DNA from: an uncultured Verrucomicrobiota bacterium
GTDB lineage: Bacteria > Verrucomicrobiota > Verrucomicrobiia > Verrucomicrobiales > Verrucomicrobiaceae
Reading direction: 5' to 3'
DNA length: 64,000 nucleotides
NCBI GenBank assembly: GCA_903838675.1
Contig: CAILZI010000111.1
Coordinates: 224-64,223, forward strand
Made by a program: the position numbers and the translations under genes. The notes under the pieces are model-generated. The model saw only the letters and a list, made by a program, of their open reading frames with translations, was not told where the DNA came from and made no database searches. Each line of letters opens with the position of its first letter. Within the stretch, counting starts at the first letter, position 1. Positions 1,959 to 11,573 of the stretch are shown here, in pieces.

Positions 1959-2059
1959 GGTGGGAAGGGGGCGTACAAGGTGTCGAAACCATGGCACACC
2001 GCAAGGATGGATGATGGTTTCGCTTTTACTGATCGATGGGTGAGGTTAAATCGTTAAGG

Positions 2060-3031
2060 ATGCCATCTGTGCCTGCCATCCTCTTAAATCTGCCTGCTGC
2101 CTGTGATCCTGCCGAACCGGTGCTGCTGGCAATCTCAGGCGGGCGGGACTCCGTGGCGCTGCTGCACCTGCTGCGGGAGGCGGGATACACCCAGCTCATT
2201 CTCTGCCACTTGAACCACGGTTTGCGCGGCAAGGAATCGATCGACGATGCGGCGTTTGTGCGGCGGCTGGCGAAGAAGCTGGGGCTGAAATGCGAGATCG
2301 AGACGGAAGACGTGGCAGCGCTGGCGGAAAAAAGCCGTACTTCGACTGAGACGGCCGCCCGAGAGGCACGGCATGCGTTTTTGCTGCGAATGGCGGAGAA
2401 ATATGACGTGTGGGTCGTCCTGCTCGCGCATCATGCCGAGGATCAGGTGGAGACGATTTTTGCGAATCTTTGCCGTGGCAGCGGCCTGGCCGGAGTGGCG
2501 GGCATGCATGCGGTGCAGAGGCTGGATACGGGCCTGCATCTGGTGCGGCCATTGCTGCAAGTCCGGCGCAGCGAGATCGATGCCTATCTCAAATCAAAGC
2601 GCTTCAAGTTCCGGGAGGACTCCAGCAACACCTCGCCAAAACACCGCCGCAACCGGCTGCGGCATGAGGCGCTGCCACTGCTGAACGATATTTTTGCCCG
2701 TGACGTGGTGCCGCAGGTGCTGCGGCTGGGATCACTGGCTGAGCAAGATGATGACGCACTGCACCGGCAGGCGCTGGCGTTTCTGACGGCGGAAGGGCAG
2801 GTGAAGGATGATCGCTCGTTGGTGGTGACGCCGGAACTGCTGGCGCTGCATCCGGCGGTGTCGTCACGCGTGTTTGCGCTCTGGCTGCGCGAGGCGTGGG
2901 AACTGCCGGGCATCGAGCATGATGTCATTGAAGCGGCGATGGAAATGCTGGCCCCGGATGGTGCGGCCAAGATCAACTTGCCCGGAGACAAGCACCTGCG
3001 CCGCAAGGCAAAGCGGATGTGGGTGGAGTAA
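2060..3031 (+). CDS. tilS: tRNA(Ile)-lysidine synthetase
   Basis: PP-loop AISGGRDS, HLNHGLRG, AHHAEDQVET, RPLL, EDSSN, RNRLRH. Start is either ATG 2036 or 2060. Confidence 0.93.
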   Translation: MPSVPAILLNLPAACDPAEPVLLAISGGRDSVALLHLLREAGYTQLILCHLNHGLRGKESIDDAAFVRRLAKKLGLKCEIETEDVAALAEKSRTSTETAAREARHAFLLRMAEKYDVWVVLLAHHAEDQVETIFANLCRGSGLAGVAGMHAVQRLDTGLHLVRPLLQVRRSEIDAYLKSKRFKFREDSSNTSPKHRRNRLRHEALPLLNDIFARDVVPQVLRLGSLAEQDDDALHRQALAFLTAEGQVKDDRSLVVTPELLALHPAVSSRVFALWLREAWELPGIEHDVIEAAMEMLAPDGAAKINLPGDKHLRRKAKRMWVE

Positions 3032-3095: not shown

Positions 3096-4061
3096 TCAGC
3101 CGAGCGGATCATTGACGATGGCTAGAGCATGGCTGCCCACGCTGTAGGTCACATCGGTGATGCCGATGACGGAGCGGAGTTTGCCGGGCTCCACTGTGAG
3201 CGGGCCGGGCTTGGGCGCGCTGCCGGGCGCGGGCTGGGGGAAGGCGGTGGACATGCCGGTGTGGAAGGTGACGCTGCCTTCCACTTTCTGCAGCGCCTGA
3301 TGAATGTGGCCATTGAGCACGGTGACGGAGCCAAAGCGCTTGAGCAGGCCCAGAGCGCGTTCGCCATCGGTGGTGCCCCAGCCCCATTGCTCATAGACCA
3401 TCCAGAGCGGGATGTGGGCGAAGAGGACGACAGGCGTGCTGTCTTTGACGGCACGAAGGTCGTCCTCCATTCAGGCAAGCTGTTCCTCGCCAAGCTGGCC
3501 TAGGCGGCCTTCACGTTGCAGCATCACGTTGTTCAAGCCGATGAAGTGGGTGCCTTTGTGGTCGAAGCTGAACCAGCCGTGGCCCTTGGTGCTTTTGCCG
3601 AAGCGCTCAAGGTAGAGCTTGCCGTGGGCCTCCATCACATCGTGCTCGCCGGGGACGTAAAAGATCTGCTTGGTTTTGCAGCCCTTGAGGATTTGCTCAA
3701 GCGTGTCGAATTCCTCGGCTTCGGAGAGGTGGGTGAGATCCCCGGTGTGGAGGATGAAATCGGGAGCCACGGGGAGGGCGTTGATTTTATCGACTGCGGC
3801 CTGCAGCGTGCCGAGTACATCTTTGTTGGCCTCCTTGCTGAAGCCGATGTGGCTGTCGCTGATCTGGACGAAGCTGAAGTCAGCGCCGCTGACAACGGGA
3901 GCGTCTGCCGCATGTGCGCCCGCTGGCGAGAGGATACTGGAGGCCACCACGCCGCCCACGGCATTGAAGAGCACGCCGGTGCCGGCCCAGGCCATGCAGT
4001 TGAGGAAGCCGCGGCGGTCGATGCCGTCGTTGGTTTGATTTTGGAGCAGGATTTTGTTCAT
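3096..4061 (-). pseudogene. Tat-exported calcineurin-like metallophosphoesterase interrupted by one in-frame TGA (3471-3473)
   Basis: ORFs 3471-4061 and 3096-3470 are in the same frame (GEEQLA-TGA-MEDDL). Motifs DRRGFL (Tat), QISDSH, HTGDL and PGEHD are in the first half; FAHIP and NGHIH are in the second. Confidence 0.8.
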
Positions 4062-4096
4062 GTTTTTGTGGGTGTCGGTTTGGATTGACATGAGCC

Positions 4097-4125
4097 CAAC
4101 CAGCGTCGGCATTGGTTTATTCCCG
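4097..4125 (-). promoter_or_regulatory. Putative ECF-sigma promoter for the phosphoesterase (GGAATAAA-N15-GTTG)
   Basis: CGGGAATAAAC on the minus strand at 4115-4125 is identical to the plus-strand copy at 4146-4156, with the same 15-nt spacing to a GT(C/T) element. Confidence 0.6.
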
Positions 4126-4145
4126 TGCCAAAATTCTTTTTGGGG

Positions 4146-4174
4146 CGGGAATAAACTTATCCCTGCCGAAGTCT
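4146..4174 (+). promoter_or_regulatory. Putative autoregulatory ECF-sigma promoter (GGAATAAA-N15-GTCT)
   Basis: cgggaataaac ttatccctgccgaa gtct lies just upstream of the sigma gene; it is mirrored on the other strand. Confidence 0.6.
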
Positions 4175-4195
4175 GGAACCGAAAGCCCCTCGCTT

Positions 4196-4726
4196 GTGGA
4201 ACTCCGAATCGATCCCTTTGAACATACCATCCTCCCCCATCTGGATGCCGCCTACAACCTGGCGCGCTGGCTGGCGGGCAATGAGCATGATGCGCAAGAC
4301 ATCGTGCAAGAGTCGTGCCTGCGTGCGGTGAAGTTCTTTGAGGGATTTCGCGGCGGCAATCCGCGTGCCTGGCTGCTCACCATTGTGCGCAACACCAGCT
4401 ACACCTGGCTGAAGAAACGAGGCGCTGCCCACATGCATGCCAGCATCGACGATGAGGAATTCGAACTGGAAGATGTGGCGGCGAATCCGCAGCAGTTGGA
4501 AATGGCGATGGACTATGTCGAGCGCATGAGGGCGGCCATTGATCAACTGCCGCCGGAGTTCCGCGAGGTCATCGTACTGCGCGAAATGGAAGAGTATTCC
4601 TACAAGGAGATCGCCGACATTGCCGCAGTTCCCATCGGAACGGTGATGTCGCGACTGGCACGGGGACGCCAGCAACTGCGCATGATTCTCTGCGCTGAAA
4701 CCCAGACTGAGGGAGGACAACCATGA
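4196..4726 (+). CDS. ECF RNA polymerase sigma-70 factor
   Basis: LPHLDAAYNLARWL...DAQDIVQESCLRA (region 2) and REVIVLREMEEYSYKEIADIAAVPIGTVMSRLARGR (region 4). GTG 4196 preferred because it lies downstream of the predicted promoter. Confidence 0.92.
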   Translation: MELRIDPFEHTILPHLDAAYNLARWLAGNEHDAQDIVQESCLRAVKFFEGFRGGNPRAWLLTIVRNTSYTWLKKRGAAHMHASIDDEEFELEDVAANPQQLEMAMDYVERMRAAIDQLPPEFREVIVLREMEEYSYKEIADIAAVPIGTVMSRLARGRQQLRMILCAETQTEGGQP

Positions 4727-5490
4727 ACTGCCAAGAAACACAACACTGGCTCTCCGCCTATTGCGATGGTGAACTGCCGATGCCGCTGACACTTGAGATC
4801 GAGCGGCATTTTGGCGGCTGCCAGAACTGTGCGCTGATGAGGGATAACAGCACGCTCATGAGCAAGCGCCTACGTGCCGCAGCCTTCACGGTACCTGAGG
4901 GGCTGAGGCAGAGTGTGCGTGCCGCTGTGCAGCCGCAGGCCCAAGCCGCACGCGTCGTCCGGCCAGGCCGCAATTGGTGGACGGGCATTGCTGCCGCTGC
5001 TGCCATTGTCATCGCTGCCTTCCTGGTGCAGACGCATGACCGTGCGCAGGACAAGCGCCTGCTGTTGAGTGAAGTCACTGACAGCCACATTCGCTCGCTC
5101 ATCGGCGATCATTTGGTCGATGTCGCCTCATCGGACAAGCACACCGTGCGTCCGTGGTTTGAGGGCAAAGTGGACTTTGCACCCGCAGTGCCGGACCTAT
5201 CCGCGCAGGGATTTAAAACCATTGGCGGAAGGCTCGACTACATTGGCGGTCATTCGGCTGCCGCGCTTGTGTATCAATGCCGCAAGCACTACATCAGCCT
5301 GCTTCTCTGGCCTGCCGGGGTGGATGAGAATGCCTCATCGGGCATTCAATCTGAGGCAGCGCAGCGGGGCTACAGCATCGTGCGCTGGAACGCGGGAGGG
5401 CTGTGCTACTGGGCCATTTCAGAGATCAGTCAGGAGGATCTGAAGTCCTTTGCAAAAGCTTTTCAGGGAGAGGTCGGAGGCGTGCAATAA
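4723..5490 (+). CDS. Membrane anti-sigma factor with N-terminal zinc-finger (H-x3-C-x2-C)
   Basis: ATGA overlap with the sigma gene; LSAYCDGEL...RHFGGCQNC, one TM helix (WWTGIAAAAAIVIAAFLV), periplasmic DVASSDKHTVRPWFEGKVDFAP domain. Confidence 0.88.
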   Translation: MNCQETQHWLSAYCDGELPMPLTLEIERHFGGCQNCALMRDNSTLMSKRLRAAAFTVPEGLRQSVRAAVQPQAQAARVVRPGRNWWTGIAAAAAIVIAAFLVQTHDRAQDKRLLLSEVTDSHIRSLIGDHLVDVASSDKHTVRPWFEGKVDFAPAVPDLSAQGFKTIGGRLDYIGGHSAAALVYQCRKHYISLLLWPAGVDENASSGIQSEAAQRGYSIVRWNAGGLCYWAISEISQEDLKSFAKAFQGEVGGVQ

Positions 5491-5569: not shown

Positions 5570-6805
5570 TCAGCCTTCCAGCGTGTGGACGAATAGGCCG
5601 CTGCGGAGCTTGGGTTCAAACCAGGTGCTCTTAGGGGGCATGATCTGGCCGACGTCGGAGATGGCCATGAGTTGATCGACGGTGGTGGGGAACATGGAGA
5701 AGGCCACGGTGTGCTCCTTGGCATTTACCAATTTTTCCAGTTCAGCCGTGCCACGGATGCCTCCGATGAAGTCGATGCGCTTGCTGGTGCGCGGGTCGTC
5801 GATGCCGAGGATCGGCTTGAGCAGGCGGTCCTGGAGGATGCTGACGTCGAGCTGTTCGATGGGGCTGGCATCCTTGGCGGGCTCCCAGTTAAGCTCATAC
5901 CACTGGTCCTTGAGGTACATGCAGCACTGGCCGGGTTTGGTGGGGGACTTGAGGGTGGTGGGCTTGATGGTGAAGACTTCGCCGACCTTCTTGAGAAACT
6001 CCTCGCGGTCGTTGCAGTTGAGATCTTTGACCGCGCGGTTGTAGGGAAGGATTTTGAGTTCGTTGCCGGGGAAGAGCACGCTGAGGAACCAGTTGTAGTT
6101 TTCCTCGCCTGTGTGGTTCGGGTTGGCCTCGCGGCGCAGCTTGCTGACGCGGAAGGCGCTGGCGGCGCGGTGGTGGCCATCGGCGACGTAGGCGCAGGGA
6201 ACCTGGCTTTCAAACAGGCCGGTCAAGGACACGCAGAGGCCGAGCGAGATGCGCCAGAGCTGATGGCGCACGCCATCGGGGGCGGTGAAGTCGTTGATGG
6301 GCTTCTCGGTCTTCATGAAGCTTTCGATCAGAGCGCTGATGCCGGGACGCTGGCGGTAGGTGAGGAAAATGGGGCCGGTGTTGGCATTGAGGGCATCGAC
6401 GAGATTGGTGCGGTCGTCCTCTTTGTCCTGGCGGGTCTTCTCGTGCTTCTTGATGATGTCCTTCTCGTAGTCCTCGGTGTGGCAGACGGTGACGAGGCCG
6501 GTCTGGCTGTGGCCGGCGATGACCTGGCGGTAAAGGTACATGCAGGGCTTGGCCTCGCGGACGAGGATGCCATCCTTCTGCAGGCGGTCGAAGTTTTCGC
6601 GGGCCTTGGCGTAAACGGGGGCGGAATAGGGATCGATTTCAGGATCGAGATCGATTTCGGCGCGGTCCACATGCAGGAGGCTGAAGGGCTTGCCCTTGGC
6701 CAGGGCGGCGGCTTCCTCCCGGTTCACCACGTCGTAAGGAACGGCGGCGACTTCGGGGGCGTTTTTCTGGGTGGGGACGAGACCTTTGAATGAGCGGATG
6801 CGCAT
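5570..6805 (-). CDS. DUF1015 family protein
   Basis: PYDVV, HEKTR, YVADGHHR, IDFIGG and C-terminal MPPKSTWFEPKLRSGL are typical of DUF1015. Confidence 0.88.
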   Translation of the reverse strand: MRIRSFKGLVPTQKNAPEVAAVPYDVVNREEAAALAKGKPFSLLHVDRAEIDLDPEIDPYSAPVYAKARENFDRLQKDGILVREAKPCMYLYRQVIAGHSQTGLVTVCHTEDYEKDIIKKHEKTRQDKEDDRTNLVDALNANTGPIFLTYRQRPGISALIESFMKTEKPINDFTAPDGVRHQLWRISLGLCVSLTGLFESQVPCAYVADGHHRAASAFRVSKLRREANPNHTGEENYNWFLSVLFPGNELKILPYNRAVKDLNCNDREEFLKKVGEVFTIKPTTLKSPTKPGQCCMYLKDQWYELNWEPAKDASPIEQLDVSILQDRLLKPILGIDDPRTSKRIDFIGGIRGTAELEKLVNAKEHTVAFSMFPTTVDQLMAISDVGQIMPPKSTWFEPKLRSGLFVHTLEG

Positions 6806-6835
6806 GGGGCGGGATAAGGCGAGGGGGGGCGGTTG

Positions 6836-6871
6836 TCAATCCGCACTCTTGGGCGGATTTGCTTCGTGATT
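6836..6871 (-). other. Orphan diverged copy of the last 11 codons plus stop of the cbiX-like gene
   Basis: Reads NHEANPPKSAD* versus NHEANAAKSAV* at 7423-7458; 26/36 nt identical, 5 differences synonymous. Confidence 0.7.
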
Positions 6872-6947
6872 CCGAACAATGCAAGGCATACTGGGGCAGA
6901 GCCTCAAGGGGCTGGTAAAAATGACTTAGATGAGGTATGAATGACTC

Positions 6948-7376
6948 GTGGACGACGACCTGGTGTTTTCAGAAAACGAAAGACCGCGCTACCTGCTGCC
7001 GGAAGGCTGCAAGGACCTTTATGACGTGATTCGGATGCAAGAGCGGGATGCCGCCATTGAAAAGGAGAGGGCTGCCATCCGTTCCAGTGCTCTTGAAAAA
7101 TATGCCAGCAAGGAAATGGAAGATCCCATGAGCACTTTGGCGCAGCTTGCGGAAGCCTTTGAAAAGCACCTCGGTGCGCCCGCCAAGGAATTGCCTCAAT
7201 GTATCGCGATTCCAATACCCGTGACCGTTGGTGAGCTGGCTGGCCTGCTTTTTATGCAGCCTTTCAAGATCATTTCTTTGCTGATTAAGCTCAAAATCTT
7301 TGCCAGCAAAGATTCAGAGATCAGCTACGAAACCGCTTCCAAAATTTGCGCTTTCTTTGGAGTGGCGGTGAAATAG
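6948..7376 (+). CDS. Small protein with a C-terminal IF2 N-terminal (IF2_N-like) domain
   Basis: IPIPVTVGELAGLLFMQPFKIISLLIKLKIFASKDSEISYETASKICAFFG matches the IF2_N pattern (xTVxELAxxL...IIxxLxxL...IxxETAxxIxxxFG); visibly AT-richer than its flanks. Confidence 0.7.
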   Translation: MDDDLVFSENERPRYLLPEGCKDLYDVIRMQERDAAIEKERAAIRSSALEKYASKEMEDPMSTLAQLAEAFEKHLGAPAKELPQCIAIPIPVTVGELAGLLFMQPFKIISLLIKLKIFASKDSEISYETASKICAFFGVAVK

Positions 7377-7422
7377 CCATGCGAATCCTTAAACTGACTG
7401 CTTCAGAGATAGGTCATTCTTT

Positions 7423-8898
7423 TCAAACAGCACTCTTCGCAGCATTCGCCTCATGGTTCTCCCGAGCCAACTTGCGTGCCGCAGAGACGACGTGGGTGCA
7501 GGCCTCAATGCAGAGCAGGGGCATGGCGTTGAGGGCGTGATTGGGCTGCGTTTTGGCAGCGGCCGCTCCGGCCATGGGCTGGGTGGGGGTGAGGGGCCAG
7601 AGGATGCGGCGGAGGCATTTGGTATTGGCGCAGGTTTTGCCGATCAGTGCGTGGGCCTGATCATCGGTGATGGTGTTGACGAAGCGATACATGCCGGTCT
7701 GGCGGCCGAGGAGGTCGCGCAGGGGGACGGCGGCGAGCTTTTCCTGCCCCAGTGCACGAGCCAGGCCGATGGCGGCGGGGTAGAAGAAATCGAGCGCGAG
7801 GCGCAGTTCGTCGAGATCGGCGAGATCGAGACGCCAGCCGCGATTTAGGGTGGGCGCGGAATGCAGGGGGCGGAAGGTGCCGCTGGCATCGTTTCGCGCG
7901 ATGAAGAGGGCATCGTGCGCTTCATGGTGGACCTGGAGATCCTCTTGGCCGCGATCGGCGATATGGCAGAGCGAATAGGTGCCATCGTCATTGGTGGCGA
8001 TGAGGATCTCTCCGATCTCATCGAGGCCTGAGTTCAACCAGTAGGCTAGGGAGGATTTCACCTCGTCGTTCGGCATGCCTTTTTTGTCCTTCACCTGATG
8101 CTTGGCATCGAAGTCGTGCACCTGATCGAGGATGACGTCTGCCATGAGAGGCTCGGTGCCGATGGCACCGCTGTAGTAGATCTGACGGCCTTGGAGCTGA
8201 TGCGGGTTTTGATGAAAGACGCCGATCTCGCTGAGCGCGGCACCGACTTCTTCGCGCATGCCGAGGAGGACGGGGATGTCCTGAAAGCTATGGAGGCCAT
8301 CGGCAATGAAGAAGGGGACGACGACGACATTCGGAGCTGTGGTGAGTTTGGCCCATTCAGCGACGAGGGGGGCTTCCTCCATGTAGGCGTCGATGACTTC
8401 GGCGAAGCCGTAGTGGCCGCTGCGAATGAGGACTACTTGATCCTGGATGGCCTTGGTGGAGTTCTCGTTCAGACTGGTGCCGTGGCCGACGATGACGAGG
8501 CTGGTCTGCTCGCGTGGCACATGGGGTGCGACTTCATCGGCACGCTGGATGAGGAGGCGCGTCATGTTGGGGTGGACGCCCACGGGATCGCAGTAGTGGA
8601 TCGTTTTGCCATCGCGGTGCGTGGTGGGGCCGTCGAGCTGGAGTTCACGCGGGAGCACCTGCTGGCAGAAGTAGCCTTCGCTGATGAAATTCGGGACGAT
8701 GTAGATGACCTCGCTGTCCACCATCTCGTACACTTCGCGCATGTTGGGCTCCTCTTTCCAGAAGCAGCAGACGACCTCGCGGAAGAGGCCGCGGCGGCGG
8801 ATGGAGTCGGCGTGCAGGTGAGTCGGGGCGCTGGAGTCCGGATTCGTGGTGGAACCGTGACCGACGATGATGAGGGCTGCGTGGGAGTAAGAGCTCAA
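7423..8898 (-). CDS. Tandem CbiX/SirB chelatase domains fused to a DR2241-like, Cys-containing C-terminal region
   Basis: Two chelatase repeats (LIIVGHGS...CCFWKEEP; LVIVGHGT...AYMEEAP...VVPFFIADGLHS), then LGRQTGMYR...CANTKCLRRILW...LCIEAC. TTG start. Confidence 0.8.
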   Translation of the reverse strand: MSSYSHAALIIVGHGSTTNPDSSAPTHLHADSIRRRGLFREVVCCFWKEEPNMREVYEMVDSEVIYIVPNFISEGYFCQQVLPRELQLDGPTTHRDGKTIHYCDPVGVHPNMTRLLIQRADEVAPHVPREQTSLVIVGHGTSLNENSTKAIQDQVVLIRSGHYGFAEVIDAYMEEAPLVAEWAKLTTAPNVVVVPFFIADGLHSFQDIPVLLGMREEVGAALSEIGVFHQNPHQLQGRQIYYSGAIGTEPLMADVILDQVHDFDAKHQVKDKKGMPNDEVKSSLAYWLNSGLDEIGEILIATNDDGTYSLCHIADRGQEDLQVHHEAHDALFIARNDASGTFRPLHSAPTLNRGWRLDLADLDELRLALDFFYPAAIGLARALGQEKLAAVPLRDLLGRQTGMYRFVNTITDDQAHALIGKTCANTKCLRRILWPLTPTQPMAGAAAAKTQPNHALNAMPLLCIEACTHVVSAARKLARENHEANAAKSAV

Positions 8899-9527: not shown

Positions 9528-9628
9528 GGGCGCATCCTAGACGGCAATTGGCGGGTGCTAAATCGCAATTTTCAAATCTCGCATTCCGCCGGGTCACCGC
9601 TAAAGATGCCCTCCCCCGACCACCCGCC

Positions 9629-10756
9629 ATGTCCGCCGCCCCTCTTCCCACCGACCACACTGACCCGATCAACGCGCAAATCCTCGCCGTGAGCGAAGAC
9701 CGCATCAAAGGCTTCACCCCCACACCGTTTCAGGACATCGCGCAGTTGTCCGGCCTGCCGCTGGAGACGGTGGTGGAGCGCATCCAGGCGATGCTGAAGG
9801 CCGGGGTGATCCGCCGCGTGCGGCAAACCCTGCTGGCCAACAAGCTGGCTGAAGGCGCGCTGGTGGCCTGGAAAGTGCCCACGGAAAAGCTCGATGCCGC
9901 CTTTGAATTCCTCTTCAAGCAGGACCCCTTCAGCGGGCATGTGGTGCTGCGCTCCACAGACCGCGAAGTGAGCGGCAGTGACTACCGCCTGTGGACTACG
10001 CTGAAAGTGCCGCAGGGGTATGATATCAACCAGCATTGCGATGTGCTGGCGAAGCTGATCGGTGCGGAAAGCTACTACACCATGGAAGCGCATGGCATTT
10101 TCGCCCTGGGCGTGGGCCATGTGCGCCGCAAGACGCTGGAGCCCGGCGATAGAGCCGATGTGCCTGCTGTGATGATGACCACCAACATCGCCGAGCTGGA
10201 TGAAGAAGAGTGGAACGTGCTGCTGCATCTCAAGGGAGATCTGAGCGTGGACGAAGTTGGCCCAAATCCATGGGAAGGCCGCGCCAAGGCTGCGGGTGTC
10301 TCGTTTGAGAAATTCTGTGAAGTCGCCAAACAGCTCGACAAAAAAGGCGTCATTGGCCGCTTCTCCACTTTCTTGGAGCACGTGAAGCCCAGCTCCACGG
10401 GCGTGCGCGTGACGCGCTTCAATGCTCTGTTCCACTGGAAGGTGCCCAAAGGCATGGAAGAACGGGCAGGCGGCGAAGTGGGCCGCCACACCATCATGAC
10501 CCACGCCTACTGGCGTGAAGGCGGTGAGCGCTTTGCCAACGTGAACATCATGGGTGTCATCCACGGCACCGACAAAGAGATGGTGCTGGCTCACAAGGCC
10601 GCCATCGACAAGCATCTGGCCGAAGAAGGCATCCCGCTGGAATACACGAATGTGTTCTGGGGCGGCCGCAGCGAAATCAAGCCCAGCGAGATCTCACCGA
10701 TCGTGTTCAAGGAATGGCACGCGAAGTGGAAGGATGTGGCGGGGCCGGTGGTGTGA
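9629..10756 (+). CDS. Fused AhbA-AhbB / NirDL-type siroheme decarboxylase (Lrp/AsnC-like fold, two repeats)
   Basis: Two HTH+Lrp units (PFQDIAQLSGL...AGVIRRV; PWEGRAKAAGVS...KGVIGRF), each followed by a GALVAWKVP / NALFHWKVP segment and an HxxxR motif (GHVVLR, THAYWR). Start moved to ATG 9629. Confidence 0.78.
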   Translation: MSAAPLPTDHTDPINAQILAVSEDRIKGFTPTPFQDIAQLSGLPLETVVERIQAMLKAGVIRRVRQTLLANKLAEGALVAWKVPTEKLDAAFEFLFKQDPFSGHVVLRSTDREVSGSDYRLWTTLKVPQGYDINQHCDVLAKLIGAESYYTMEAHGIFALGVGHVRRKTLEPGDRADVPAVMMTTNIAELDEEEWNVLLHLKGDLSVDEVGPNPWEGRAKAAGVSFEKFCEVAKQLDKKGVIGRFSTFLEHVKPSSTGVRVTRFNALFHWKVPKGMEERAGGEVGRHTIMTHAYWREGGERFANVNIMGVIHGTDKEMVLAHKAAIDKHLAEEGIPLEYTNVFWGGRSEIKPSEISPIVFKEWHAKWKDVAGPVV

Positions 10757-10790
10757 GGAGAATCGATACTGATCGAGTCATGATGCCAGT

Positions 10791-10858: not shown

Positions 10859-11446
10859 TCAATCCACAGCATAGACGATGCAAGCAAAGCTGAATGTGGC
10901 ATCCGTCTGCAACTCGCAGCGGCCGGTGCTGTTTTTCATGTCGGTGCGCTCAAACGTAATGATGCCGTGAAAATCAGGCAAAGCGTCAAGCCCCGGAAAG
11001 TCGGTTGTGGTGAAATAGAGATGATCTGGCTGGTAGTCGCTGCGGGTGAAGGGCGGACGCGCAAGAATGGCGCGCAGGCTTGCGGGATCGCAGCGGAAGT
11101 AGGCTTTCACCACATAGTCGGTCCACGCGTCTTCCTGGATGTGCAGATCATGGATTCCGGCAGGTATGTTTCCTGCAAATGCGACTCTGAGCGCCTGGGT
11201 GTCTCTTCCGCCGGTGATGAACAGACTGCCTGCGAGGATGAGAGCTGGCAGCAGCATGGCGCTGCGACGCAACCACACCGGGGAGCGAAAGCGGCGGAAA
11301 ACCCAGCGCACGCACCACTGGCCCAAAAGGACCAACGGCAAGATGATGATGAGGTGGAAGCCGCCCACAAAAGCGTCCCTTGTGGACGCTGCTAACAGGA
11401 CGAACAGCAGCAGGGTGGCCCAAAAGACTGGAAAACGGGGAGGCAA
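10859..11446 (-). CDS. Hypothetical membrane-anchored protein
   Basis: 195-aa ORF with three hydrophobic N-terminal segments and a soluble C-terminal domain; TTG start; no family recognised. Confidence 0.6.
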   Translation of the reverse strand: MPPRFPVFWATLLLFVLLAASTRDAFVGGFHLIIILPLVLLGQWCVRWVFRRFRSPVWLRRSAMLLPALILAGSLFITGGRDTQALRVAFAGNIPAGIHDLHIQEDAWTDYVVKAYFRCDPASLRAILARPPFTRSDYQPDHLYFTTTDFPGLDALPDFHGIITFERTDMKNSTGRCELQTDATFSFACIVYAVD

Positions 11447-11521
11447 GGGACTCGATTAGAGGTTGAGTCGCAGGGTATTTCAAACCGGTTGGTGATGTCC
11501 AACTCTTTAACGTCTCTTGTT

Positions 11522-11573
11522 TTCAAGGAATGGCACGCGAGGTGGAAGGATAAGGTGGGCCGGTGGTGTGAGG
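11522..11573 (+). other. Orphan diverged copy of the 3' end of the ahbAB-like gene
   Basis: 48/53 positions match 10706-10758 (FKEWHA(K/R)WKD...gtgtgagg), with one gap. Confidence 0.85.

Follow-up and report, generated by a model that had tools for sequence, protein, structure and literature searches.

Genes and features at the locus

The window analyzed here is a stretch of 64,000 nucleotides from an uncultured bacterium of the Verrucomicrobiaceae. Between a DUF1015 gene and a chelatase-like gene, it contains a short gene on an inserted segment. The protein encoded by this gene has three parts, with a charged helical linker joining an N-terminal tag to a C-terminal IF2_N-fold domain. The features, in window coordinates, are as follows.

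5570..6805, minus strand: gene for a DUF1015 protein (Pfam DUF1015, 349 bits), divergent from the small gene
6833..6872: left direct repeat (repeat family D2), the former 3′ end of the CbiX-like gene, which survives as a non-coding relic
6873..7459: inserted segment of ~587 bp carrying this gene only, delimited by comparison with relatives and by a GC dip; its register within the repeat is arbitrary
6948..7376, plus strand: gene for the tagged IF2_N protein, 142 aa, GTG start and TAG stop (open reading frame [ORF] list and sequence)
6978..7034, plus strand: N-terminal tag, residues 11-29 (ERPRYLLPEGCKDLYDVIR), from alignments, counts over 102 ORFs and dN/dS
7035..7193, plus strand: variable charged helical linker, residues 30-82, from AlphaFold2 helices and variability among homologues
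7194..7373, plus strand: C-terminal IF2_N-fold domain (C-domain), residues 83-142, from Pfam, fold and identity to IF2
7420..7459: right direct repeat, which supplies the current 3′ tail of the CbiX-like gene and continues into the ORF at 7423..8898 (minus strand)
7423..8898, minus strand: double-CbiX/DR2241/Fer4_23 chelatase-like gene (Pfam CbiX, DR2241, Fer4_23), convergent with the small gene

The small gene is monocistronic within the window, and a promoter and terminator scan gave nothing above shuffled expectation. Its GTG start (V in gene-caller translations, before DDDL) recurs among orthologues, and the reading frame is intact in every one of them. A word-indexed search found eight close homologues of the 142-aa protein; one of them (P0005, in genome G016) is named "hypothetical protein [Prosthecobacter sp.]." An RNA element in place of a protein was considered and rejected, as an Rfam scan of positions 6500-7800 returned no match at E ≤ 1 and orthologues differ synonymously within the tag motif. 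In a Verrucomicrobium of the Prosthecobacter type, the ORF at 6948..7376 is a real accessory gene under selection.

The gene lies on an inserted segment between copies of a duplicated gene tail

The initial annotation, made from the window sequence, had placed the gene on an inserted segment. Flanking repeats, an empty site in relatives and low GC all support this. The two 40-nt direct repeat copies are 73% identical and are spaced 587 bp apart. The left copy is identical to the uninterrupted CbiX-like tail of G006 at 36 of 40 positions, and G016 and G013 have this relic too. The gap between the CbiX-like and DUF1015 genes is 35 to 36 bp in G006, G011, G020, G028 and G030. GC dips to 0.50 at the insertion; GC is 0.51 and GC3 0.585 there, compared with a GC3 of 0.73 to 0.85 for the neighboring genes.

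The annotation had also called the protein mobile, and this claim held only in part. On the one hand, the site is a hot spot for accessory DNA. A Phd-like/PIN (VapBC) pair lies beside the small gene in G016, and the pair is found without the small gene in G017. The site in G021 carries an IS200-like (RAYT-type) gene flanked by REP palindromes, while G005, G001 and G036 have REP-like palindrome remnants only. In G013, the small gene is followed at the contig end by an ORF that we take to be IS630-like, having identified it by eye from its N-terminal sequence. On the other hand, the 587-bp segment contained no integrase, transposase or terminal inverted repeats, only the 40-nt direct repeat, and the gene is kept at the same junction by four related genomes (the host genome G000, G016, G013 and a Lac Pavin metagenome-assembled genome [MAG]). 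An autonomous mobile element (insertion sequence, MITE, integron cassette or prophage) was rejected on the grounds of no mobility gene, no inverted repeats and no phage match. A type II toxin-antitoxin module was likewise rejected, given that the gene is monocistronic in the window, that the VapBC pair also occurs alone in G017 and that there was no PADLOC match.

A tree of the DUF1015 protein, which is 97 to 98% identical in G016 and G013, splits an "empty-site" clade from an "occupied-site" clade. The simplest history looks to be one gain in a sub-clade, followed by at least three losses, at a site that attracts accessory DNA. The small gene is dispensable, being rare in the phylum and lost in the closest relatives. 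A second case of a single-gene insertion bracketed by a duplicated gene tail is present elsewhere in the same window.

The C-terminal domain is a free-standing relative of the IF2 N2 domain

The initial annotation described a stand-alone IF2_N-fold protein without a GTPase domain, in which a motif and a charged helix precede the domain. Each element of that description was recovered. Pfam IF2_N (PF04760) matched residues 91-138 (nt 7218-7361) at an E value of 2.7e-5 and 24.3 bits, 1 bit under the gathering score of 25.3. The same stretch reached 25.3 bits, at the cut-off, in a six-frame search of the genome, and other family members score 33 to 38 bits. The sole NCBIfam match was to the start of the IF-2 model TIGR00487, with 11.4 bits against a cut-off of 424.4 and coverage of profile positions 3-61 only. 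Since this model matched over its first ~60 positions only, the 142-aa protein contains no GTPase. The protein is not translation initiation factor IF-2 itself, as at 142 aa it is without the G domain, domain II and the C1/C2 tRNA-binding domains.

An AlphaFold2 model built on a 41-sequence alignment had a mean pLDDT of 84.6. In this model the C-domain is compact (pLDDT 92-97) and is preceded by helices at residues 21-55 (charged, pLDDT 86-96) and 60-74. Its predicted beta-alpha-alpha-beta-alpha-beta fold is superposable on IF2 N1 and N2 domains. The top four Foldseek matches in the PDB were 9a4o_A (E 2.3e-5), 7uiu, 7unv_x and 9h9h_Y, all IF2 N-type domains and three of them on ribosomes; 7uiu is the N2 sub-domain of Pseudomonas aeruginosa IF2 on the 30S subunit, and 9h9h_Y comes from a 30S-IF1-IF2-IF3 complex. 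E values for the IF2 domains ranged from 2e-5 to 6e-3, and an earlier model gave an agreeing ranking. Thermus thermophilus IF2 structures superpose with the C-domain with an rmsd of 1.2 to 1.3 Å over 48 to 50 residues. By score, membership of the C-domain in Pfam IF2_N is borderline; by predicted fold it is clear.

The host infB gene begins ~32 nt beyond the end of the window. It encodes an IF2 with a long disordered N-terminus, followed by a single IF2_N directly before the G domain. Comparison with the host infB, which the annotation had proposed, showed the C-domain to be 44 to 50% identical to the IF2 domain (50% over 48 aa). The close-family profile matches residues 293-365 of Escherichia coli IF2, which form the N2 (G-proximal) copy and not N1. 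Sequence and predicted fold together show the C-domain to be a homologue of IF2 N2 (N/G1).

In P. aeruginosa, N2 packs against 16S rRNA helix h16 at the 30S shoulder, with contacts at R259 and S277-V278-K279 (Basu et al., PMC9192638). These contact residues were aligned with the family through E. coli IF2 residues 308 and 326-328. The h16-contact lysine (P. aeruginosa K279, E. coli 328) is Lys in host IF2 and in most family members, and the loop that holds it, L-K-[PG]-[FY], is common to IF2 and most of the family. In the window protein and its nearest relative the residue is Gln, which counts against simple h16 binding by this copy. The position matching the contact arginine is variable.

The small-protein domain co-varies with the host IF2

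The small-protein domain and IF2 N2 were extracted from the same genome for 11 genomes, of which 8 to 11 were used in each comparison. Cognate pairs were 41 to 45% identical, versus 34% for non-cognate pairs (the 11-genome average for cognate pairs was 41%). The best IF2 match was the cognate one, a tie, or an identical same-genus Prosthecobacter sequence in 7 of 11 cases. Label permutation reached the observed excess in 0 of 20,000 trials, and p was 5e-5 when a single Prosthecobacter was kept. Individual stretches show the same pattern. Small protein and IF2 both contain LMxxDIFxNP in G466, KIISxLIxxKxFASxD in Prosthecobacter, and IIADLMxxGVFAxVNQ in Limisphaerales-type genomes. Genome-wide amino-acid bias could account for part of the excess identity of cognate pairs.

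In a domain tree (~57 columns), IF2 domains form one clade and the small proteins lie outside it. The domain of the host small gene is 53% identical to infB at the nucleotide level and uses the same codon at 11 of 25 identical residues, which is ordinary codon sharing. Recent gene conversion or capture from infB was therefore rejected; the monophyly of IF2 and the 53% nucleotide identity instead imply old paralogy with co-variation. The alignments and the tree together show what appears to be an old IF2 paralogue that co-varies with the cognate IF2 of its host. Independent evolution does not predict such co-variation, whereas a shared, co-evolving binding partner would.

Constraint is strongest in a conserved N-terminal tag

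The N-terminal motif PRYLLPEGCKDLYDVIR is invariant, and PRYLLPEGCKDLYDV (residues 13-27) is invariant across 10 homologues. The tag spans about 25 residues (...R-Y-L-L-P-x-G-C-K-D-L-x-D-V-I/L...). Its columns are invariant in alignments A1 and A3. The core, L-L-P-x-G-C-K-D-L-x-D, served as the search pattern in our scans, so its invariance across the scans holds by construction; HMM-derived alignments provide the independent evidence. Over 102 complete ORFs, the consensus is M-E-x-D-Y-x-K-R-G-Y-L-L-P-x-G-C-K-D-L-I-D-V-L-K-L. The tag begins 4 to 14 residues past the start codon in most of these ORFs, and about half of them have the Tyr at position 10. Residues 1-20 had a pLDDT of 57 to 62 and are probably flexible. 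The linker that follows differs between homologues in both length and sequence.

The string L-L-P-x-G-C invites reading as a lipoprotein signal. This was rejected, as the preceding residues are acidic or polar in the window protein (MDDDLVFSENERPRY) and in the consensus (M-E-x-D-Y-x-K-R-G-Y), with no hydrophobic stretch and no signal peptide. The PVC "signature protein" CT421.2, of 53 to 80 aa, is universal in PVC bacteria (PMC3444138). Identity with CT421.2 was rejected because the tagged family is rare and no second tag-like gene was found in the host genome (7.1 Mb in 265 contigs). No Pfam, NCBIfam, PHROG or PADLOC model covers the tag, and a literature search returned no paper with GCKDL-type strings. 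The tag and the set of domains that carry it are new to the literature as searched.

dN/dS values were calculated from four orthologues, and dS values are rough on such short, diverged sequences. Within that limit, the small gene overall had a dN/dS of ~0.25 to 0.6 (dN 0.33-0.48, dS 0.76-1.8), and the flanking DUF1015 gene one of 0.02 to 0.05 (dS 0.29-0.61). Values within the small gene were 0.06 to 0.19 for the tag (residues 11-32), 0.3 to 0.8 for the linker and 0.2 to 0.5 for the C-domain. Of the three parts, the tag is the most constrained and is under strong purifying selection. The C-domain retains an invariant core (P83, P89, V94, L97, A98, L112, F118, A130, C134 and V139). Its dN of 0.34 to 0.58 is about equal to the dS of the neighboring gene, its surface changing about as fast as the neighbor's synonymous sites. 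A domain that binds a conserved rRNA helix would not be expected to evolve so fast; relaxed constraint and conflict fit such a rate equally well.

The tag is portable and also precedes domains copied from other factors

A profile search of 1.84 billion representative sequences found 574 clusters (at 50% identity) with E ≤ 1e-3, 97 of them with E ≤ 1e-10. Nearly all are 100 to 160 aa long and contain both modules, the tag and the IF2_N-fold domain, and every named member is a "hypothetical protein." Judged by these matches, the window protein is a member of a large Verrucomicrobiota family and not a lone oddity. A degenerate DNA pattern for [YF]LLPxGCKDLxD occurred at 31 loci in 185,579 species genomes, most of them labelled Verrucomicrobiota. 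One oddly labelled MAG (G464) was checked, and its IF2 N2 sequence is near-identical to that of verrucomicrobial genomes. The same pattern was present in >120 metagenome contigs. When the phylum was sampled evenly, 2 of 401 species had the tag, and a reversed control gave 0 matches. Tag-bearing genomes have one or two tagged genes each.

The modularity of the tag was assessed in the 102 complete tag-bearing ORFs, which fall into the following combinations.

Tag and IF2_N-like domain: 68 of 102 ORFs (Pfam 37.6 bits in a sample)
Tag and Hsp20-like domain: 15 of 102 ORFs (HSP20 21.9 bits in one and none in two others; the assignment is weak for some)
Tag and IF3 N-terminal domain (IF3_N): 4 of 102 ORFs (104.5 bits)
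Tag and NusA KH1-KH2 copy: 3 of 102 ORFs (KH_5 34.6 bits; 30-34% identity to NusA, residues 44-180)
Tag and sigma-70 region 4-like domain (sigma70_r4): 2 of 102 ORFs (16.9 bits, under threshold; weak)

The remaining ORFs are a few singletons. As far as sequence goes, the combinations show the tag to be a modular, portable peptide common to copies of other factor domains. One peptide on copies of IF2, IF3, NusA, sigma-like and small heat shock protein domains implies one common partner, which would be linked to several gene-expression hubs. The Hsp20-type genes have a fixed context between hemA-hemC and rplX-rplN. No conserved partner gene was found beside 12 IF2_N-type loci, whose neighbors are unrelated to one another (a leucine-rich repeat protein, squalene-hopene cyclase, beta-galactosidase, Ser/Thr kinase, ornithine carbamoyltransferase and other ORFs).

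A phage or viral origin and a known defense system were both rejected. There was no tblastn match in 50,697 phage records, no occurrence of the tag pattern in 2.9 million viral contigs, no meaningful PHROG match and no PADLOC match.

Interpretation and alternatives

We tentatively favor, at somewhat less than an even chance, the reading that the protein is an accessory tag-linker-IF2 N2 paralogue that docks as IF2 N2 docks and modulates initiation. The C-domain would dock on the site or partner used by N2 of the host IF2, such as the 30S shoulder at h16. Docking may compete with IF2 anchoring, or it may place the tag and its bound partner beside initiating ribosomes. The decoy role that the annotation had suggested gains indirect support from the match of the domain to N2 and not N1, and from its co-variation with the cognate IF2, and would be a candidate role. 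The tag would serve as a short linear motif on which a putative conserved cellular partner docks, and would bring or sense that one common partner. Translation initiation or early coupling would be modulated as a result. For this protein, binding to the 30S subunit or to a partner of IF2 is inferred, as are the sign of any effect and the function of the tag.

The same domain may instead serve as a NusA-directed adaptor that modulates early transcription-translation coupling by binding NusA and not the 30S subunit, which we regard as unlikely but well worth weighing. E. coli IF2 N1 binds NusA directly at KH2-AR1, as demonstrated by pull-down and in-cell cross-links (Metelev and Johansson 2025, PMC12297416), and N1 and N2 have a common fold (PMC9192638). 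The tag also heads stand-alone NusA KH1-KH2 copies, so both sides of this interaction exist in tagged form, and the single IF2_N of the host IF2 may have to fill both roles. However, the family profile aligns to E. coli N2 and not to N1, and the best Foldseek matches are to N2 domains on the 30S subunit. Further, the interaction is known for E. coli only and involves AR1, a region that verrucomicrobial NusA (ORFs of 420 to 494 aa) may or may not have. It is also conceivable, at rather low probability, that the gene belongs to a genetic conflict system. It could be a selfish gene, or its product could arrest growth as a decoy or act as an effector against phages or other bacteria. The tag would then signal trafficking, activation or degradation, and the variable C-domains would jam essential machinery. 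This reading draws on the patchy distribution, with repeated loss, the hot-spot location (adjoining VapBC in G016, REP/RAYT and the IS630-like ORF elsewhere) and the fast surface evolution of the C-domain; the atypical GC3 is also in its favor, as is the resemblance of a fixed N-terminal module with swappable C-domains to polymorphic effector architecture. It sits poorly with tagged loci that have no conserved partner, immunity or secretion gene nearby, with the negative PADLOC, PHROG, phage and viral searches, with C-terminal modules that are non-enzymatic docking domains and with the conserved housekeeping context of the Hsp20-type members.

Two other explanations are less likely still. A small DNA-binding regulator, with an excisionase- or MerR-like helix-turn-helix left from a decayed mobile element, is suggested by lower Foldseek matches to the DNA-binding domains of pSK1 Par, RacA, BldC and Xis and by the position of the gene on an insertion. 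We consider it improbable, as those matches have E values of 0.7 to 3 and a TM score of ~0.25, far from those of the IF2 domains, the sequence homology and co-variation are specific to IF2, and the segment has neither integrase nor transposase. That the ORF is spurious, or a non-functional relic of a partial infB duplication, is scarcely credible. Low GC3, a Pfam score just below threshold and dispensability in close relatives speak for such a relic, but hundreds of homologues have kept both modules, the tag is under strong purifying selection with invariant core residues, the frame is intact in all orthologues, and the divergence from infB is old at the nucleotide level.

The favored reading, modulation of initiation by a docking IF2 N2 paralogue, can be extended to the whole tagged set. 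In this extension, which is bold and which we hold to be doubtful, M-x-[DE]-[YF]-x-K-R-[GD]-Y-L-L-P-x-G-C-K-D-L-I-D-V-L would define a new Verrucomicrobiota class of "tagged decoy" mini-proteins. Each protein would couple one docking or effector peptide, common to all, to a free-standing interaction domain taken from the central machinery of gene expression and proteostasis. Each copied domain would home to the site of its parent factor and co-evolve with it, and the tag would recruit a shared partner, perhaps a protease, modifier or scaffold. The domains seen in such copies are IF2 N2, the N-terminal domain of IF3, KH1-KH2 of NusA, region 4 of sigma and the alpha-crystallin domain of small heat shock proteins. 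If true, tagged decoys would be a modular means of tuning or shutting down initiation and coupling, which would be categorically new.

Significance and comparison with known systems

The N-terminal sub-domains of IF2 are poorly understood; one anchors IF2 at h16 (PMC9192638) and another binds NusA, in an interaction proposed to start transcription-translation coupling (PMC12297416). A natural free-standing copy that tracks the host IF2 is a ready-made probe of what this domain binds. Competition with IF2, if it takes place, would make the small protein a novel type of small regulator of initiation. Molecular genetics has barely touched the Verrucomicrobiota, in which naming the partner of the tag would give access to a new mechanism of regulation or conflict. 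In addition, the locus documents a recurrent mode of insertion, in which single genes come to lie between copies of a duplicated gene tail.

The closest known counterpart is IF2 N2 (PF04760), with which the C-domain has in common its predicted fold, detectable homology and, in most family members, the L-K-[PG]-[FY] loop. Unlike N2, the window protein is free-standing, without a G domain or C1/C2, and its domain is preceded by the tag and the helical linker. The window copy also has Gln in place of the h16-contact lysine, and the family differs from all IF2s in the tree by an I-P-D-P start, a D-F after helix 2 and a different C-terminal strand. The complex of E. coli IF2 N1 with NusA is similar in that an isolated IF2_N-fold domain suffices there for partner binding in vivo (PMC12297416). 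It differs in that the tagged family is closer to N2 than to N1, in a comparison by sequence between unrelated organisms.

The insertion resembles islands that insert into gene 3′ ends, with a 40-nt repeat of the end of the target gene, the old tail left as a relic and reuse of the site by other accessory cargo in relatives. In contrast with such islands, the segment is only 587 bp long and has no integrase.

Short terminal targeting or docking peptides joined through a linker to diverse cargo are found in other systems, for example the encapsulation peptides of microcompartments and the N-terminal trafficking modules of polymorphic effectors. The tagged family is like these systems in its short conserved terminal peptide, variable linker and interchangeable folded domains. 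To our knowledge, the tag has no sequence resemblance to those targeting peptides. Unlike the genes of those systems, tagged genes have no shell, secretion or immunity genes nearby, and their cargoes are docking domains of the gene-expression machinery.

Insertions at and near the small gene

The intergenic site of the small gene, which encodes the tagged IF2_N-like protein, is an integration hot-spot. In some relatives the site holds a Phd-like antitoxin and a PIN toxin, while elsewhere it carries an IS200-like (RAYT-type) gene between CCAGTTGCGCCGCAACTGG palindromes. REP remnants are found there in further relatives; one relative has an IS630-like ORF, located at the end of a contig. The occupants in relatives lie at:

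L024 (genome G016), 10060-10757
L039 (G017), 714-1393
L033 (G021), 663-1376
L025 (G013), 1-200

A second tail-duplication insertion was found in the window, with these features:

9548..10756, AhbAB/NirDL-like gene, whose 3′ tail is the source of the repeats
10703-10743 and 11519-11559, direct repeat pair, 41 nt, 88% identical
10859..11446, minus strand, 195-aa ORF between the repeats, a single-gene insertion

The 195-aa ORF had no match in a Pfam search. The insertion resembles that of the small gene in that one gene is flanked by the duplicated tail of a neighboring gene. The presence of two tail-duplication insertions inside a 5-kb span suggests that some mechanism produces them repeatedly in this lineage.

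An extra block is also present between tilS and the DUF1015 gene:

2036..3031, tilS, bordering the block
3096-5490, extra block, ~2.5 kb, missing from relatives
3096-4112, minus strand, interrupted metallophosphoesterase gene, with an in-frame TGA at 3471-3473

Besides the metallophosphoesterase gene, the block carries genes for an ECF sigma factor and a zf-HC2 anti-sigma factor; it has no counterpart in G016, G013, G005, G006 and other relatives, where tilS directly adjoins DUF1015. At the break in the metallophosphoesterase gene, the TGA is followed at once by ATG (...GCC TGA ATG GAG...), and this divides a single frame into two ORFs, one of 213 aa and one of 124 aa. This arrangement could reflect a pseudogene, read-through or a split gene.

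Other architectures of the tag and the IF2_N-like domain

Tagged proteins with other C-terminal domains were found at these loci:

L095, L101, L109, L110 and L113, tag plus Hsp20-like domain, ~105 aa
L091 2533-3456 (minus strand), L132, L150 and L162, tag plus IF3_N domain

The Hsp20-like genes occupy a fixed position, 3′ of hemA-hemC and beside rplX/rplN, and look like core genes of their lineage, in contrast with the patchy IF2_N type. Stand-alone IF3_N forms are 109 to 119 aa long. In one MAG, the tag-IF3_N frame runs on into a DUF1697 domain (307 aa in total), which could be a genuine fusion or else an artefact of assembly or gene calling.

Further IF2_N-like architectures were seen among search proteins P0088, P0081, P0140, P0154, P0042 and P0048. 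A 2614-aa protein has 13 stretches matching the domain, and proteins of 567 to 1066 aa carry it close to the C terminus. One 185-aa protein has the tag and two tandem IF2_N-like domains; in another, of 137 aa, a CxxC...CxxC zinc ribbon replaces the tag. An open frame of 176 aa (G458:C1:563795-564226) is 37% identical to residues 33 to 180 of the tagged NusA-KH protein. Because this alignment leaves the tag uncovered, the frame may be an untagged stand-alone NusA KH1-KH2 copy.
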